Positions 50,890-58,318 of a stretch of DNA of 64,000 nucleotides are shown here, piece after piece. The position numbers and the translations under genes are program-made. The DNA is from Candidatus Poribacteria bacterium (GTDB lineage: Bacteria > Poribacteria > WGA-4E > WGA-3G). The stretch's first letter is position 1; every line of letters begins with the position of its first letter. The stretch spans positions 448,001 to 512,000 of the forward strand of contig CBDANF010000002.1 in assembly GCA_965197475.1 (NCBI GenBank), read 5' to 3'. The notes beneath the pieces are model-generated. The model did not search any database. It saw only the letters and a program-made list of their open reading frames with translations, and was not told the DNA's origin.

Positions 50890-51133
50890 GACTCTATGCA
50901 TAATCGTCCAGTCTCGGTTTTTCACATCTTCTGTAGAAGGTGCAGAAATCACAATTCTCAAAGTCCAAAACGTATTCTAAGCCGTTTAGTTTCTGTTCCC
51001 TAAGTCATAATGTGTGCCTCAGAAATTGGGTTACGGAGAACTGAATGGCATTGGGATAGAGAATTCTGCTTGAAATTTTGAGTATACTGGCGTATTATAT
51101 ATAATATACATATCCTTGTTAGGCTTAGACGAA

Positions 51134-54100
51134 ATGCGACACATAAAACCCATCGTTTGGCTCATTTTTATCCTATCCGGTGCAAGTGCCCTCATCTATG
51201 AAGTCCTATGGATGCGGCAACTGACGCTTGTCTTCGGCAGCACTGTTTTTGCGACAAGCACCGTGCTGACTGCATTCATGGCAGGACTCGCACTCGGCAG
51301 CTTCTACTTTGGCAGAAAGATTGATGAGAGCAAACTATCGCCGTTAAAACTTTATGCCCTTCTTGAAGCAGGCATCGGTGGATTTTGTCTCATCTGGCCC
51401 CTGCTACTAACCTTACTGACTGCCCTTTATGTCCTTATTTACCGCAACATTACATCTGAATTCTATACCCTCTCACTTATTCGCTTTGTGTTGACCTTTG
51501 GCATTCTGCTAATTCCCTCTACATTGATGGGTGGCACGTTACCGATATTGACACGGTTTTTTGTCAAAAGGTTGGAACAACTTGGAACAAACATCGGGAT
51601 TTTGTATGCGTTGAATACATTTGGCGCAGTTATTGGGACTGTGGCAGCAGGGTTTTTCTTAATTGAAGCTTTGGGTATCAAATGGACACTCGGTGTGGCA
51701 GTTGCGATTAATTTCGGTGTAGCTTTAGTAGCGTTGGTATTGGCACGGCATGCACACAAGATAGAATCAGATGAAGATGAGGAGTTAACAGAACAAGGGA
51801 TAACCAAAGCGAACGAACAGGACACACAACCGCAACAACCTGCTGTCGGTGGATTGCAGATAAAAGAAAGGCAATTAGTACTGTGGAGTATAGGCATATC
51901 CGGTTTCTGTGCTTTAGCTTATGAGGTGCTATGGACTCGTATTCTCGTATTTTTTCTGGGTAGCACAACTTATGCGTTTGCCACGATGCTCGCTGCGTTT
52001 CTGTTCGGTATTGCATTGGGCAGCATGATTTTAGCACGATGGGTTGATCAGATAAAGCAACCTGTTATCACTTTCGGCATCGTACAACTCGGCATAGGAC
52101 TCTTCGCGCTTATCCTTATGCCTGCTTTTGAGCAGTTATACGGGATAACCTCTGCGCTTCAGTCTACTTTTGGCGGGAGTAGATTTTGGGCATTCTTTTC
52201 CTGCTTTATTGTAATGTGCATTCCAACTTTTTTAATGGGTGCAAGTTTTCCGCTGGTAACGAAAATCTATACCGGCAACGCACGTCAACTTGGTAGAAGC
52301 ATCGGTAACGTCTATGCGGTTAACACAGTAGGGAGTATTTTGGGAGCGTTTTGTGCGGGGTTTGTGCTAATTCCACTACTGAATATCCGTCCCAGCATTG
52401 TGTTGGCGATTGTGTTGAACACAAGTATCGGATGTGTGCTTGTTTTGACAGGATGGCGCGCATCTACGGATGCAGGTATCAATAATGAAAAAGCGGGAAG
52501 TGGATTCAAGTCGGTTCTACAAGGGATAGGAATCGGGGTGCCGATACTCAATGTTGGATTAGCGGTTATCTTATTATTCACTTTAAGTCAACCGATCTTT
52601 CTGAAAAGCACAATTTACAAAACGCAACGCCCGGGGGATGTAGTTGTCGCTTATGAAGAGGAGATAGACGCAACAGTAACAACCTTGAGGGATGATGAAG
52701 GTGTCTATCGTCTCTATGTGGATGCAAATCAAGCAGCAGATGCTTCACGGTGGGATTCCCCATCGCATCGCGTTATTGCGCATCTGCCGTTGCTATTACA
52801 TCCCAGTCCGAAACGCGCCCTCGTCGTGGGGTTCGGCATGGGACTTACCTCACACTCAATTACACAACACGGGGTGCAAGTTGATGCAATAGAATTGTCA
52901 AAAGGGGTGATTTCTGCAGCACAAAAACATTTTATACATATCAATGGTAATATCTTTGAAAATCGCTTGTTAAATTATACATTAAATGATGGACGCAACC
53001 ATATTTTAATGACACAAAAAAAGTATGATATGATTTCAACAGGCATCATCCATCCGCTTGTCAGTGCTGGAAGTTCCAATATCTATACAGCAGATTTTTA
53101 CCGCTTGTGCAAAAGAATCCTTGCTGAGGATGGAGTGATGTGTCAGTGGGTGCCGTTACATCGTTTACCAGAGGCGCATTATAAGATGATTGTCCGCACA
53201 TTTATCAATGTTTTTCCAAATACGACTCTCTGGTATAAATACACCCCCGACTTTGTGATTCTTATCGGTACTCGTAAGCCGCTATCAATTGATTACAAAG
53301 ACTTTATGGCACGCAGCCGGATACCAAGTATCCGGGAAGGACTCGCTGCGGATGATTTAGACGGTATGTCGCTACTTGACTCTTTTATGATGGGTCCAGA
53401 AGCGGTGCGCGAATATGCAGGCGTTGGACCTATCCATACAGATGACCGTCCAAGATTGGAATTCTTCAAAGGGGCAGATTTAGCGAACTCTACCGTAAAA
53501 AATATTACTGGTATGAAAGAGTTTCGACAAAGCGTTACGTCCGTTAAATCGTTGCTGAAAAATTACGGTACCACATTAGAAGAGAAAAGAGAGGTTAAGG
53601 CAAAGATTGATAGGTACTTTGAAGCCACACAGAAATTGATTCTCGGACAAATTGCTTATGCCAAGGCACAGTCCGCGCTTGCCAGTGGACAAATTGGCGA
53701 TTTCAATTCCCAACTCGAAAGTGCGAGTGTTATGATAAACGAAGCGGTAGGAATTAATCCAGAAGATGAAACAATTCGCTATAATTTTGGTGTTGTCAGT
53801 GGCTTGATTCGCGAAGATGAACAGGAAGAACTGCGACAGATTGAACAGACAGAGCAACGTAGAGTACGGCAAAACCCCGATGACATTCAGCGGCATCTGA
53901 ATTTAGCGGTTGTGTATGAGTTGCAGAGAGAGCTCGGGAAAGCTTCATCTGAACTTGAGAAATTTCTCAAGCGCGATCCGAGCAGAGTTGATGTTTACCT
54001 ACTCTTGGGGCCACTGTATGAACGCCAGGAGCGCAATAAACAGGCACTTCACACCTACGAGCGATTAGAACAGGTTGATCCTAACTTACCTGCGCCAATT

Positions 54101-54376
54101 TTTGCTGCAATGGCACGGCTTAACTTGGTACTAAAGAATGTTGATGAAGCGAAGCGGTATGCTCAAAAAGGGTTGGAAACAGATGCCAATTCGTGGCGAT
54201 CATATTACATCCTCGGCAACGTTTATGCTGCTATGAATCGACCTCAAAAACAGCAAGAACACTATGCAGATGCCCTAAAATATATAGATCGAGAGATGCC
54301 TTTTACCCAAGATCCAACAGACCTACAATTTGCTAAACAAAAAATTCAAGATAAACTTGATAAGATACAAAAATAG
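51134..54376 (+). CDS. Fused membrane (MFS-like)/spermidine synthase-like protein with C-terminal TPRs
   Basis: SGASALIYEV.W.R, LYALNT.GA duplicated membrane halves, VVGFGMGLT, DGRN, TDDRP.LEF, TPR-like tail. Confidence 0.85.
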   Translation: MRHIKPIVWLIFILSGASALIYEVLWMRQLTLVFGSTVFATSTVLTAFMAGLALGSFYFGRKIDESKLSPLKLYALLEAGIGGFCLIWPLLLTLLTALYVLIYRNITSEFYTLSLIRFVLTFGILLIPSTLMGGTLPILTRFFVKRLEQLGTNIGILYALNTFGAVIGTVAAGFFLIEALGIKWTLGVAVAINFGVALVALVLARHAHKIESDEDEELTEQGITKANEQDTQPQQPAVGGLQIKERQLVLWSIGISGFCALAYEVLWTRILVFFLGSTTYAFATMLAAFLFGIALGSMILARWVDQIKQPVITFGIVQLGIGLFALILMPAFEQLYGITSALQSTFGGSRFWAFFSCFIVMCIPTFLMGASFPLVTKIYTGNARQLGRSIGNVYAVNTVGSILGAFCAGFVLIPLLNIRPSIVLAIVLNTSIGCVLVLTGWRASTDAGINNEKAGSGFKSVLQGIGIGVPILNVGLAVILLFTLSQPIFLKSTIYKTQRPGDVVVAYEEEIDATVTTLRDDEGVYRLYVDANQAADASRWDSPSHRVIAHLPLLLHPSPKRALVVGFGMGLTSHSITQHGVQVDAIELSKGVISAAQKHFIHINGNIFENRLLNYTLNDGRNHILMTQKKYDMISTGIIHPLVSAGSSNIYTADFYRLCKRILAEDGVMCQWVPLHRLPEAHYKMIVRTFINVFPNTTLWYKYTPDFVILIGTRKPLSIDYKDFMARSRIPSIREGLAADDLDGMSLLDSFMMGPEAVREYAGVGPIHTDDRPRLEFFKGADLANSTVKNITGMKEFRQSVTSVKSLLKNYGTTLEEKREVKAKIDRYFEATQKLILGQIAYAKAQSALASGQIGDFNSQLESASVMINEAVGINPEDETIRYNFGVVSGLIREDEQEELRQIEQTEQRRVRQNPDDIQRHLNLAVVYELQRELGKASSELEKFLKRDPSRVDVYLLLGPLYERQERNKQALHTYERLEQVDPNLPAPIFAAMARLNLVLKNVDEAKRYAQKGLETDANSWRSYYILGNVYAAMNRPQKQQEHYADALKYIDREMPFTQDPTDLQFAKQKIQDKLDKIQK

Positions 54377-54396
54377 GAGGAAAATACAAACCAATT

Positions 54397-56409
54397 ATGT
54401 CCCAAGAACCTTCTTTAAAACGGACACACTATTGTGGTGAGCTGCGTTTGAGTGATACTGGCACCACTGCCCGACTCAACGGCTGGGTCAGACGTCGTCG
54501 TGACCATGGCGGTGTGATTTTCGTCGATTTGCGCGATAGGACAGGGATCACGCAGGTCGTCTTTGACCCGCAGATTGACGAAAAAGCGCACGCCCTTGCG
54601 GATGCTGTCAGAAGTGAATTTGTCCTGCATGTCAGCGGTACTGTCCGTGAACGTGCTCCTGGCGAACTACTCTTCACAGCAGATGCAGCATTTCAATCTG
54701 AACTATCCAATGCTACCGCGTTGTCAGCCGAATTTCGTTCCATTTTTTCCGATTTAGATACGAAATACACACTTTCCGATGACATCAAAGTTAACGTTCG
54801 CGAGCCTGAAAAACGATGGCTGCTCACAGATGTGGAAAATAATAGAACTTACGACATAGCGCGTGAAGCGGACAGTCTCAATGTCTATCAAGGTACCGTT
54901 AATCCAGAACTTGACACAGGTGAAATAGAAATTGCGGTTGATACGTTGAATATTCTCAATACTGCCAAAACCCCACCGTTCCCTGTTGAAGACGATATTG
55001 AAGTGGCAGAAGATATCCGGATGCGGTATCGGTTCATTGATTTGCGGCGACCGGAAATGCAAAAAACACTCAAAATGCGGCATAAAGCTGCACTTGCCTC
55101 CCGCAACTACATGAATGAACAGGGGTTCCTTGAAATTGAGACCCCTATCTTGATGAACAGTACGCCGGAGGGTGCACGTGATGTTCTTGTGCCGAGTCGT
55201 CATTATCCCGGTAAATTTTATGCGTTACCGCAATCACCGCAACAGTTTAAGCAGATTCTGATGATGAGTGGGGTTGACCGTTATTTTCAGATTGCGCGCT
55301 GCTTCCGAGATGAAGATACCCGCGCTGATAGACAACTTGAGTTCACCCAACTTGATATTGAGATGTCTTTCGCAGATGTTGACGATGTGCTTGAGGTTAC
55401 TGAAGGTTTGATGAAACGAATATTTGAGGAATCGGGTAACATTCCAGTTCAAACGCCTTTCCTGCGGCTTCCCTACCACGAATCGATGGCACGGTTCGGG
55501 AATGACAAGCCGGATACGCGCTTCGGTATGGAACTCACAGACCTCTCCGATGTTATGGCAGACTGCGATTTTCAGGTGTTCACCCGCGCGCTGTCTTCCG
55601 GTGGACAGGTGAAAGGTATTGCTGTTCCTGGAGGTGCAGATTTTTCAAGGAAAGACATTGATGATTTGACAGAGTTCGTTGCCACCTACCGAGCGAAGGG
55701 ATTGGCATGGATTAAGGTTACGCCGGAGGGTTTTTCATCAGGGATTGTCAAGTTTTTCAAGACAGAACAGCTCGAAACAGCACAAGAAAGAATGGGTGCG
55801 AAACCTGGGGACATCATGTTCTTTGTCGCTGATCGACCAAAAGTTATCGCAGATGCACTCGGCAATCTTCGTCTACATCTCGGTCATAAACTTAATATGA
55901 TTGATGAAAATCGGTACAACTTTTTGTGGATTGTTGATTACCCACTGTTTGAGTGGAACGAAGAAGAAAATCGCTACGAACCGTTCCACCATCTCTTCAC
56001 CGGTGCAACTGAAGAGACTTTGCCTCTATTAGATACTGAGCCAGGTAAAGTTCAGAGTCAACATTACGATCTGGTTTGCAACGGGTCAGAAATTTGTAGT
56101 GGAAGCGTTAGAATTCATCAATGGGATGTCCAACAGAAAATTTTTGAAATTCTGAAGATAAAACCGGAAGATGTCAAAAACAGATTCGGTTATTTCATTG
56201 ACGCTTTGGAATATGGGACACCACCGCATGCGGGGATTGCACCAGGGCTTGACCGTATCGTCATGTTAATGCGGAACGAGGAAAATATCCGCGAGGTAAT
56301 TGCGTTTCCAAAATCTCAACAGGGGTTGTGCCCGCTTACACACGCACCGTCTACTGTGACAGAGGCACAATTGGAAGAGTTGTCTATTCGCGTGGATGTG
56401 GATGAATAG
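54397..56409 (+). CDS. aspS: Aspartate-tRNA ligase (probably non-discriminating) with a 77-aa insertion
   Basis: RTHYCGEL, RRRDHGG, LPQSPQ.FKQ, CFRDED.RADRQ.EFTQ, GAD domain, PPHAGIAPGLDR. Confidence 0.97.
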   Translation: MSQEPSLKRTHYCGELRLSDTGTTARLNGWVRRRRDHGGVIFVDLRDRTGITQVVFDPQIDEKAHALADAVRSEFVLHVSGTVRERAPGELLFTADAAFQSELSNATALSAEFRSIFSDLDTKYTLSDDIKVNVREPEKRWLLTDVENNRTYDIAREADSLNVYQGTVNPELDTGEIEIAVDTLNILNTAKTPPFPVEDDIEVAEDIRMRYRFIDLRRPEMQKTLKMRHKAALASRNYMNEQGFLEIETPILMNSTPEGARDVLVPSRHYPGKFYALPQSPQQFKQILMMSGVDRYFQIARCFRDEDTRADRQLEFTQLDIEMSFADVDDVLEVTEGLMKRIFEESGNIPVQTPFLRLPYHESMARFGNDKPDTRFGMELTDLSDVMADCDFQVFTRALSSGGQVKGIAVPGGADFSRKDIDDLTEFVATYRAKGLAWIKVTPEGFSSGIVKFFKTEQLETAQERMGAKPGDIMFFVADRPKVIADALGNLRLHLGHKLNMIDENRYNFLWIVDYPLFEWNEEENRYEPFHHLFTGATEETLPLLDTEPGKVQSQHYDLVCNGSEICSGSVRIHQWDVQQKIFEILKIKPEDVKNRFGYFIDALEYGTPPHAGIAPGLDRIVMLMRNEENIREVIAFPKSQQGLCPLTHAPSTVTEAQLEELSIRVDVDE

Positions 56410-56737: not shown

Positions 56738-58318
56738 ATGAATGAAAACCGAAATGGAAAGAATGAGCTTGGGATACTTTACGGTATTATCATCGCTATC
56801 ATAGTTGGTGCACTTGTCGGTGGCTTTGCTCCCGATTTTGCCGAGCACACGCACATATTGGGTGATATCTTCTTAACCATGCTCAAGATGATTGTTGTTC
56901 CACTCGTTATTTTCTCTATGGTGGTTGGTATTACGAACTTAGGTGATATCCGAAACCTCGGCTCTATTGGTGGACGCACCGTGCTTTACTATATGGCGAC
57001 TACCGGCATCTCTGTTGTCATCGGGATGATTCTCGTTAACATCATTGCCCCCGGAAAAGGTCTTTCGTCGGGTGAAGAACTAACGAATTCAAACTATACG
57101 TTAAGTGGTACAGATAGCCTGACTGTTACATTAGATGGCCAAGTGACCGGAAACTATACCGATAAATATGTCATCACACTCGACGATCAAAATGTGATGG
57201 GCGAGATAAAAACTATTGATGGCAATACAGTCACTGTAGATCGATGGCAAGTTATATCAGATGATGTGGAATACATCGTAGCAGAGAGTGGTAACCTGCT
57301 GATGGTCACTGACAAACAATTTAGCGATTTGGATCCCAAAGAAACGGGTACCGGTGTTAAAATTTCCCTACCAATTGCCTCAAGAGTTCAAGGTAAAGAG
57401 CAACGGACTATGGTTGGCACCATTATAGAGGTGTTCCTCGGTAACAAAGAAACTGGAAAACAGGGTATGATTCCATCAAATGTCTTCAAGGCGATGGCGA
57501 ACATGGAAATCCTACCGCTCATCTTTTTCTCACTGCTCATTGGTGCAGCTTTGTCAGTCATCGGTGAAGTAGGTAAACCCGCTATAGCTATCTTTAACGC
57601 GTTTAATGGAGCAGTGATGCAGATAGTTAACTGGATCATGTTCCTCGCGCCGGTAGGTATCTTTGGCTTAATAGCTGGTAGGATAGGAAAGGCAGATGGA
57701 TTCGCTGGATTCTGGCCAGAATTAGTCGCTGTCGGAAAATATAGTGTGACGGTGATATTAGGACTTGGTATCCACGGTATCTTTGTACTACCGATCCTGC
57801 TTCTCGTTTTAGGAAGGCGAAACCCTTTGGGATACGCCAAAGGTGTGGGAACCGCATTACTGAACGCCTTCTCTACCGCAAGTTCAAGCGCTACCTTGCC
57901 GCTAACAATGGAAGGGGTTGAAGAACAAAACGGTATCTCTAATCGGACTGCAAGTTTCGTTTTGCCATTAGGCGCGACCATTAATATGGATGGCACAGCA
58001 CTGTATGAGGCAGTCGCTGTCATGTTCATCGCACAGGTATACGCTATACCAATGGGACCGGTGGAGCAGATAATTGTTGTGTTAACTGCAACACTCGCCG
58101 CGATCGGTGCTGCAGGTATACCTGAAGCAGGACTCGTTACGATGGTCATTGTTCTGAATGCTGTTGGGCTACCGATCGAAGGTGTCGCCTTGATACTCTC
58201 GGTTGATTGGCTTCTTGACAGATTCCGCACCACCGTCAACGTCTGGGGCGACAGCGTTGGTGCTGGTATCATTGAAACTTATGAATCTGGGGATTCTGTT
58301 GAAGTTCCAGCAACTTAG
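56738..58318 (+). CDS. Dicarboxylate/amino acid:cation symporter (DAACS, GltP/GltT-like)
   Basis: LKMIVVPL, AFSTASSSATLP, GATINMDGTALYE, GAAGIP, LDRFRTTVNVWGD. Confidence 0.95.
   Translation: MNENRNGKNELGILYGIIIAIIVGALVGGFAPDFAEHTHILGDIFLTMLKMIVVPLVIFSMVVGITNLGDIRNLGSIGGRTVLYYMATTGISVVIGMILVNIIAPGKGLSSGEELTNSNYTLSGTDSLTVTLDGQVTGNYTDKYVITLDDQNVMGEIKTIDGNTVTVDRWQVISDDVEYIVAESGNLLMVTDKQFSDLDPKETGTGVKISLPIASRVQGKEQRTMVGTIIEVFLGNKETGKQGMIPSNVFKAMANMEILPLIFFSLLIGAALSVIGEVGKPAIAIFNAFNGAVMQIVNWIMFLAPVGIFGLIAGRIGKADGFAGFWPELVAVGKYSVTVILGLGIHGIFVLPILLLVLGRRNPLGYAKGVGTALLNAFSTASSSATLPLTMEGVEEQNGISNRTASFVLPLGATINMDGTALYEAVAVMFIAQVYAIPMGPVEQIIVVLTATLAAIGAAGIPEAGLVTMVIVLNAVGLPIEGVALILSVDWLLDRFRTTVNVWGDSVGAGIIETYESGDSVEVPAT

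Follow-up and report, generated by a model that had tools for sequence, protein, structure and literature searches.

The aspS gene in a 64,000-nucleotide stretch of a Candidatus Poribacteria genome (assembly GCA_965197475.1, contig CBDANF010000002.1, positions 448,001 to 512,000; hereafter the window) encodes an aspartyl-tRNA synthetase (AspRS) that carries a 77-amino-acid (aa) insert in its anticodon-recognition loop (positions 54661-54891). This insert represents one member of an undescribed alpha+beta domain family of about 70-77 aa, predicted to fold independently, for which we found no counterpart in Pfam, NCBIfam or the Protein Data Bank (PDB). The explanation we consider likely is that copies of this self-folding domain, referred to below as the module, have been put in frame into loops and linkers of unrelated proteins, and that one of them entered AspRS, probably a single time, and has been kept since.

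Results

Position and boundaries of the insert

The non-discriminating AspRS of Pseudomonas aeruginosa (PDB chain 4wj3_M) aligned to the Poribacteria enzyme in two pieces (query residues 7-89 to chain residues 9-90, and 165-666 to 89-592), which leaves about 75 AspRS residues (approximately 90-164) without a counterpart. To place the boundaries, 28 AspRS sequences from Poribacteria were aligned, of which 11 have the insert and 17 do not; those of genomes G051 and G053 were excluded from this alignment and from the tree described below, as their motif-based extraction failed. The insert begins two residues past the conserved Arg of the loop between strands beta4 and beta5 of the OB fold and splits this loop exactly between RxRx(E/P) and G(T/A/L)xNPxL, without the loss of a single host residue, while the 17 insert-free sequences read RxRxE-G(T/A/L)xNPNL. 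Its removal leaves 593 aa (670 - 77), and the insert-free orthologues measure 586-603 aa. Both the site and the normal size of the remaining enzyme had been proposed in a preliminary description of this DNA, and the alignments bear them out.

The same description had noted the lack of intein termini, terminal inverted repeats (TIRs) and target-site duplications (TSDs), and this also stands. No direct or inverted repeats were found flanking 54661 and 54891, the GC content is unremarkable, and the folding of the insert as RNA or DNA showed no excess stability in comparison with shuffled sequences (z = +1.47; 190 of 200 shuffles folded at least equally well). The insert starts with G-E-L-L-F and ends with N-V-Y-Q followed by G, with no N-terminal Cys/Ser/Thr and no His-Asn; no Hint or intein family of Pfam matched it at E <= 1, and the Rfam covariance models, those of introns included, gave 0 matches at E <= 1 in positions 54300-55200. 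In a sponge metatranscriptome, one 155-nucleotide (nt) contig with one mismatch spans 54583 to 54704 across the 5' junction (DNA carry-over is possible), and no spliced joints were seen in the RNA-library contigs, which cover parts of the stretch only and may likewise include carried-over DNA. No weight is given here to the middle of the insert, which no RNA contig covers, or to the 3' junction, where coverage extends just 10 nt into the insert.

An undescribed domain family

The insert alone, used as query against its own genome, matched a DUF4861 protein (E = 4.7e-8), a tandem YibE/F protein (E = 5.8e-6) and, more weakly, others, and a profile of 12 sequences recognised five further own-genome copies not yet contained in it (E 2.9e-9 to 4e-3). 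These single-sequence and profile E-values to paralogous copies indicate that the resemblance is not due to chance. The final profile, run with hmmsearch over all own-genome open reading frames (ORFs) of at least 50 aa, yielded 12 ORFs with 15 domain hits between them, none weaker than E = 2e-16, and the next-best ORF followed at E = 0.046; the own-genome copies scored from 1e-16 to 1e-26 and the AspRS insert 1e-25. Homology between the AspRS and DUF4861 copies is confined to the interval from an 'LF' start to an 'LNVY/LNLY' end, as the flanks alone gave no alignment at E <= 100; an apparent upstream extension of this similarity, in rows reaching query residue 56, was rejected for the same reason. 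The hallmark of the module is LF..D...Q.{E/D}L.....S.EL...F.....LS....V.V.....W.I.D..N..tY.I.....LNVY, and canonical copies read LFSID.K.FQSDLD.G.IS..LRQEFENNGISLS...TVSIE....W.I.D......Y.V.KE...LNIY. The insert had earlier been likened to an uncharacterised module of roughly 70 aa that is repeated in unrelated proteins of Poribacteria and archaea, and for the Poribacteria, in which the module is found both singly and repeated, the hallmark pattern and the profile matches support this; homologues thus exist outside aspS, and no match to a described AspRS domain was obtained.

When modelled alone with AlphaFold2 (AF2; 17-row alignment), the module was predicted with a local distance difference test score (pLDDT) of 87.4 and a template modelling score (pTM) of 0.72, in the order beta (residues 3-8), alpha (9-16), alpha (23-32) and then four strands, i.e., beta-alpha-alpha-beta-beta-beta-beta. 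The AF2 model of full-length AspRS (50-row alignment, mean pLDDT 80.7) has the same elements at residues 91-165 (block pLDDT 80-90), between the OB strands beta4 (76-85) and beta5 (177-186). A Foldseek search of the module against the PDB returned no match at E <= 1e-3, and the best Z-scores of a wide VIA-align search over 48,161 chains were 4.3 (profilin, 5zza_P) and 4.2 (KA1, 5iri_B), none reaching 5. The four C-terminal strands align to single propeller blades with root-mean-square deviations of 1.5-2.1 over about 40 residues. A two-copy homodimer test of the module (alignment A2) scored 0.00, which counts neither for nor against binding.

The sequence databases were equally silent: 0 families of Pfam-A 2025 matched the 77-aa insert alone at E <= 1, no Pfam family covers the module in ten module-rich proteins, NCBIfam 20.0 gave nothing for five module proteins save one stray match (E = 0.021), and the best match of the module profile among PDB sequences had an E-value of 0.19. 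No description of the module was found in the literature on Poribacteria and on selfish in-frame domain insertions, supplementary files not being covered.

Hosts and distribution of the module

The own-genome hosts that could be identified by Pfam are AspRS, the DUF4861 and tandem YibE/F proteins, a protein with two VWA domains and two module copies between them, a histidine kinase (HisKA and HATPase_c), an O-antigen-ligase-like protein (Wzy_C), BamA (Omp85 and POTRA) and sigma-54; four more hosts have no Pfam assignment, one of them a 369-aa protein with three copies. In sigma-54 (RpoN; G000:C3:2233495-2235303, minus strand; Pfam AID, CBD and DBD), where G000 denotes the genome of the window, the module lies at about aa 183-254 and splits the match to the core-binding domain, the second stretch of which, after the module, corresponds to profile positions 49-185. 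In BamA (G000:C3:3114268-3117282, plus strand), it occupies aa 500-567 of a 1005-aa fragment, after the best POTRA match (aa 337-426) and ahead of the Omp85 barrel (aa 703-1005). All own-genome matches at E <= 1e-5 (13/13) are located in stop-free open frames of 323-1061 aa, and no intergenic or decayed copies were seen.

At least one module match (E <= 1e-5) was present in 167 of 176 Poribacteria genomes. Since the best 33 candidates per genome were scored, the copy numbers are lower bounds, amounting to at least about 7-13 in family f1, 17-25 in f2, 11-33 in f3 and 3-11 in f4 (f and g are our labels for families and genera); full-count searches of three f3 genomes gave 38, 33 and 23 copies. 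Among 1.84 billion representative proteins, 2007 matched at E <= 1e-3, 577 at E <= 1e-10 and 36 at E <= 1e-30, many with tandem copies, and the ten top matches are annotated solely as 'hypothetical protein'. Sixty proteins, hand-picked from the 150 best matches listed and mainly with one or two copies, contained 68 different Pfam families, pentapeptide repeats being the commonest (6/60). A word-indexed protein search mostly returned orthologues of the own-genome host proteins.

Outside the Poribacteria, the module was detected in one of five arbitrary genomes, a metagenome-assembled genome labelled Geobacter sp., in which a 1412-aa ORF (G179:C8:12500-17500) has at least two copies; within the phylum of that genome, two of 121 sampled genomes, itself included, were positive. 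No match was obtained when a canonical stand-alone module was compared by tblastn with 72,556 plasmid and 50,697 phage records. The family is greatly expanded in Candidatus Poribacteria and sporadic in one other phylum. The earlier suggestion of a promiscuous domain inserting in frame is upheld by its 12 own-genome ORFs, its presence in most Poribacteria genomes and its many unrelated host families.

The module makes up most of certain proteins (one of 5820 aa with 31 matched stretches, another of 800 aa), and other module-rich proteins alternate it with pentapeptide-repeat blocks. In the ESM Atlas, all feature matches stayed below 0.9 and the structure rows had TM-scores of 0.47-0.66; weak structural leads point to possible inserts in BamB-like, PhoD and COX15 proteins of Poribacteria and in archaeal MbhE/exosortase clusters.

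Age and history of the insertions

The AspRS insert was found in 33 of 41 genomes (24 of genus g1, G000 among them, six of f2 and three of g3) and is limited to f1, f2 and genus g3; seven genomes (g6 and f4) have an AspRS without it, and one (G013, 81% complete) yielded no AspRS match. Fifteen further genomes comprised 14 without the insert, from the other f3 genera and families f5-f11, and one (G048) with a C-terminal AspRS fragment only. On a maximum-likelihood tree of the 28 AspRS, computed after removal of the insert columns, two state changes are needed; the strongly supported branches permit a single change, which 14% of the bootstrap trees show. The simplest history is probably one ancient insertion in an ancestor, the second change being due to a subsequent loss or to weak resolution of a node.

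Families f1-f3 have the sigma-54 copy; in f4 it is missing and the match is split at 166/256. BamA has its copy in f1 and f2 but in neither f3 nor f4. Different hosts thus acquired the module at different phylogenetic depths. In the BamA of one g1 genome (G021), 58 residues of the copy are deleted in frame and the last strand alone remains. Judged by their divergence, the copies within a genome are old: their pairwise identity has a median of 22% and a maximum of 36% in G000, and medians of 34-46% in three f3 genomes.

A single pair, on different contigs of genome G066, is 93% identical, every other within-genome pair being at or below 59%; this may reflect a recent gene duplication or assembly redundancy (730 contigs, 7% contamination). 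The AspRS insert of two other Poribacteria is itself enlarged, by about 25 and about 9 residues, the added residues being nested secondary insertions that lie around the first helix and in the loop preceding the second strand.

Selection on the AspRS copy

Among the 24 orthologues of genus g1, the median ratio of nonsynonymous to synonymous substitution rates (dN/dS, Nei-Gojobori) was 0.136 for the insert, 0.032 for the flanking OB fold and 0.036 for the rest of AspRS. The insert is under purifying selection, about four times weaker than that on its host. The AspRS copies are acidic, with a net charge of -7 here and of -4 to -11 in five orthologues, compared with a family median of -2 (49 copies).

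tRNA specificity

No asparaginyl-tRNA synthetase (AsnRS; TIGR00457) scored over the cut-off in G000 (92.7% complete) or in any of 41 relatives, GatB, the subunit of GatCAB that was searched for, was recovered in G000 with 591 bits, also over the cut-off, and the genome has one tRNA-Asp (GTC) and one tRNA-Asn (GTT). With no AsnRS, GatB present and both tRNAs present, the AspRS should be non-discriminating, i.e., it probably charges both tRNAAsp and tRNAAsn. The preliminary description had pointed out the His of the RRRDHGG motif; this residue is H37 here and is invariant in all 50 aligned Poribacteria AspRS. H37 and the loop Gly align with 4wj3_M, in which the R-x-R-P-E-G loop and RRRDHGG are conserved; the corresponding P. 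aeruginosa residues H31 and G83 are what we take to be the determinants of non-discriminating recognition.

The further proposal that the insert alters tRNA specificity was not supported, in contrast to the part of the same interpretation that concerned a promiscuous, uncharacterised module. AsnRS was absent over the cut-off both in the 33 genomes with the insert and in the seven without it, and since insert-bearing and insert-free lineages alike lack it, the insert appears to mark no change in specificity. The acidity of the AspRS copies argues, in addition, against direct binding of the RNA backbone. No link between the insert and tRNA specificity was found in these genomic comparisons.

Domain layout of AspRS and neighbouring genes

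The protein has the features of a bacterial-type class IIb AspRS, an OB-fold anticodon-binding domain, a class II core and a GAD domain (Table 1). The tRNA-synt_2 family (PF00152) matched the core with E = 2.5e-115, the OB-fold match (PF01336) is cut short at the insert (aa 26-90, equivalent to profile positions 2-64 of 75), and the AF2 strands of the OB fold preceding the insert are at 24-37, 40-47, 50-56 and 76-85. Solved AspRS relatives in the PDB were recovered at E of about 1e-177 (1.4e-177 for P. aeruginosa 4WJ3/4WJ4), and Foldseek matched the model to 1c0a_A with E = 4e-62.

Table 1. Location of aspS and of its predicted domains in the window
Feature	Position	Strand	Basis
aspS, bacterial-type aspartyl-tRNA synthetase, 670 aa	54397..56409	+	ORF, Pfam, PDB relatives, Foldseek
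N-terminal part, anticodon-binding OB fold, aa 1-88, strands beta1-beta4	54397..54660	+	PF01336 and AF2
RRRDHGG motif in N-terminal OB-fold part, H37 codon	54505-54507	+	alignment
77-aa inserted domain, aa 89-165, GELLF...LNVYQ	54661..54891	+	PDB gap, presence/absence alignment, profile, AF2
Second half of beta4-beta5 loop (GTVNPELDTGE), strand beta5 and hinge, aa 166-204	54892..55008	+	4wj3_M alignment, AF2 strand 177-186
Class II catalytic core, aa 205-641	55009..56319	+	Pfam PF00152
Bacterial GAD insertion domain within the core, aa 395-488	55579-55860	+	Pfam PF02938

Upstream of aspS lies a gene for a 1086-aa protein (51116-54376, plus strand) in which an MFS-like membrane region is joined to a spermidine-synthase domain and to TPR repeats at the C-terminus. 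The gene just downstream (56738-58318, plus strand) encodes a 526-aa sodium:dicarboxylate symporter (PF00375), whose Pfam match comes in two stretches, the best of which joins aa 243-513 to profile positions 120-385; the match is interrupted by a beta-rich segment of about 120 aa (about aa 105-235). This segment is not matched by the module profile and hence represents another, different in-frame insertion.

Discussion

According to the explanation that we favour, module copies would have been placed in frame, over evolutionary time, into surface loops and linkers of unrelated cytoplasmic and envelope proteins. In AspRS, an ancestor shared by three Poribacteria families would have received its copy at the tip of the OB-fold loop between beta4 and beta5, with no host residue removed. 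The domain would project from this loop as a self-contained passenger on which selection acts mainly to preserve folding, so that the essential enzyme is left unharmed, and the enzyme would still charge tRNAAsp(GUC) and tRNAAsn(GUU), the latter for the GatCAB route. Within this explanation the passenger mechanism is the most likely one, carrying a little less than half of the weight, and the insert may have gained an accessory role, e.g., in binding a partner or in tuning how the tRNA is bound. We infer that the insert is tolerated rather than specificity-changing, and the same standing applies to the way in which copies moved between genes.

Several points weigh against this explanation. The four-fold higher dN/dS, the acidity and the position near the loop Arg could equally fit a specific, faster-evolving function, and the dN/dS values come from sequences with synonymous divergence near saturation (dS about 1.4-1.8; 41-77 of 276 pairs were dropped as saturated). 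The AspRS tree formally asks for two changes, equivalent to a gain with a loss in g6 or to two gains. The profile behind the distribution was built from own-genome copies, and its counts lean towards Poribacteria-like variants. The explanation does not account for the movement of copies between genes, and what it proposes on function comes from sequences and predicted models.

The insert could, alternatively, be a specificity module: through its place in the loop by which anticodon base 36 is read, it would change or enforce the choice between tRNAAsp (C36) and tRNAAsn (U36), or would add a contact to the tRNA. This idea draws on the insertion point between the E and the G of the RxRxE-G loop of the anticodon-binding domain, on the purifying selection acting on the AspRS copy and on its acidity relative to the family median, which suggests host-specific adaptation, as well as on a section of a review in which dual charging by non-discriminating AspRS is tied to idiosyncratic features of the anticodon-binding domain and to the C36/U36 difference (PMC9976931). 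With AsnRS over the cut-off in none of the 41 relatives, however, a non-discriminating enzyme should be required in both groups, and the insert coincides with no switch; the loop is intact to either side of it, the same domain sits in hosts unrelated to RNA, and acidic surfaces bind RNA poorly, which makes this idea quite unlikely. That the insert is an intein, an intron or another element removed to give a mature 593-aa enzyme has next to no chance of being correct: such an element would account for an insertion that is clean, in frame and placed at a conserved point in an essential enzyme, but splicing residues, Hint/intein and Rfam matches and an RNA structure signal are all missing, an RNA contig crosses the 5' junction with no joints seen, and the amino-acid sequence of the insert is under purifying selection.

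The footprint of a selfish mobile DNA, similar to the Rickettsia palindromic elements (RPEs), in which the 'domain' would be the peptide encoded by the element, would explain in-frame copies at loops of many unrelated genes, essential ones included, the differing ages of insertions in different hosts and a copy that could largely be deleted without loss of the host gene (BamA of G021); RPEs, as portrayed in an excerpt of the study concerned, offer a precedent for frequent in-frame insertion (PMC10969869). We nonetheless regard it as unlikely, since TIRs, target duplications and a palindromic fold are lacking (z = +1.47), all own-genome copies reside in long open frames with none intergenic or decayed, the copies are old (the 93% pair of G066 is the sole one above 60%), fold-defining residues are conserved at a dN/dS of 0.14, and plasmid and phage collections contain no matches. 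A common handle, i.e., a binding or assembly tag for one partner (an adaptor, a protease, a scaffold or the module itself) that would couple its hosts to a Poribacteria-specific process or location, is very unlikely in our view. Copies in very different hosts retain the same handful of residues (W, D, Y, LNVY, LS, F), and many proteins have tandem repeats, often together with pentapeptide repeats, as is typical of interaction modules; yet these residues mostly form the hydrophobic core of the predicted fold, and the hosts appear to belong to different compartments, AspRS and sigma-54 being, to judge from the sequences, cytoplasmic while BamA (POTRA), the lipoprotein-like DUF4861 protein, a CxxCH-bearing protein and the sensor region of the histidine kinase would be in the envelope. 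A bolder version of these ideas would have a 'domain transposon' that copies a domain able to fold by itself, in frame, into the loops of any gene, seeding more than 2,000 protein clusters, AspRS, sigma-54 and BamA among them, or else a handle shared across the phylum that co-regulates or co-localises translation, transcription and envelope assembly; we hold this, too, to be unlikely.

Lineage-specific insertions are common in aminoacyl-tRNA synthetases. The P. aeruginosa enzyme (4WJ3/4WJ4) shares with the Poribacteria AspRS the OB fold, catalytic core and GAD domain in the same order, together with RRRDHGG and R-x-R-P-E-G, and differs, as do the other solved AspRS compared, in having no counterpart of the 77-aa, predictedly folded domain in the loop. 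GAD (PF02938), to our knowledge universal in bacterial-type AspRS, is likewise an extra folded domain in a synthetase loop and vertically inherited, but it belongs to the catalytic core, whereas the module is clade-restricted, occupies the anticodon-binding loop and recurs in sigma-54, BamA and further hosts. RPEs are palindromic DNA repeats of about 150 bp with families defined at the DNA level. They and other in-frame miniature inverted-repeat transposable elements are the closest analogues in behaviour: in the excerpt of the RPE study, a short in-frame module is described in many unrelated genes, metabolic and housekeeping ones included, apparently compatible with their folds (PMC10969869). 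The Poribacteria module differs in the lack of a palindrome, TIR, TSD and of intergenic or recent copies, its unit being a protein fold of 70-77 aa. With inteins and intein-like elements, such as 'ShiLan', reported in a section of the publication concerned as an in-frame insertion in a phage methylase (PMC11855218), it has in common the in-frame insertion within a conserved region of an important enzyme, but it has neither splicing residues nor an endonuclease and, instead of homing to one site, occurs in hundreds of hosts.

Conclusions

The same undescribed domain is found in loops of several essential machines, namely the synthetase that probably charges both Asp and Asn tRNAs, the core-binding region of sigma-54 and the POTRA part of BamA. 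For domain curation it represents a large, clean new family without a Pfam, NCBIfam or PDB counterpart, and for studies of insertional evolution and domain-insertion engineering it is a natural collection of cases showing where conserved proteins can accommodate a 70-aa domain in their loops. In tRNA biology, the Poribacteria enzyme could serve as a natural variant for gauging the steric load that a non-discriminating AspRS can bear in the loop recognising base 36. How copies move without DNA-level signatures is a testable question raised by these observations. The feature of sponge-symbiont Poribacteria reported here is real: a new domain family with an unusual insertion behaviour.

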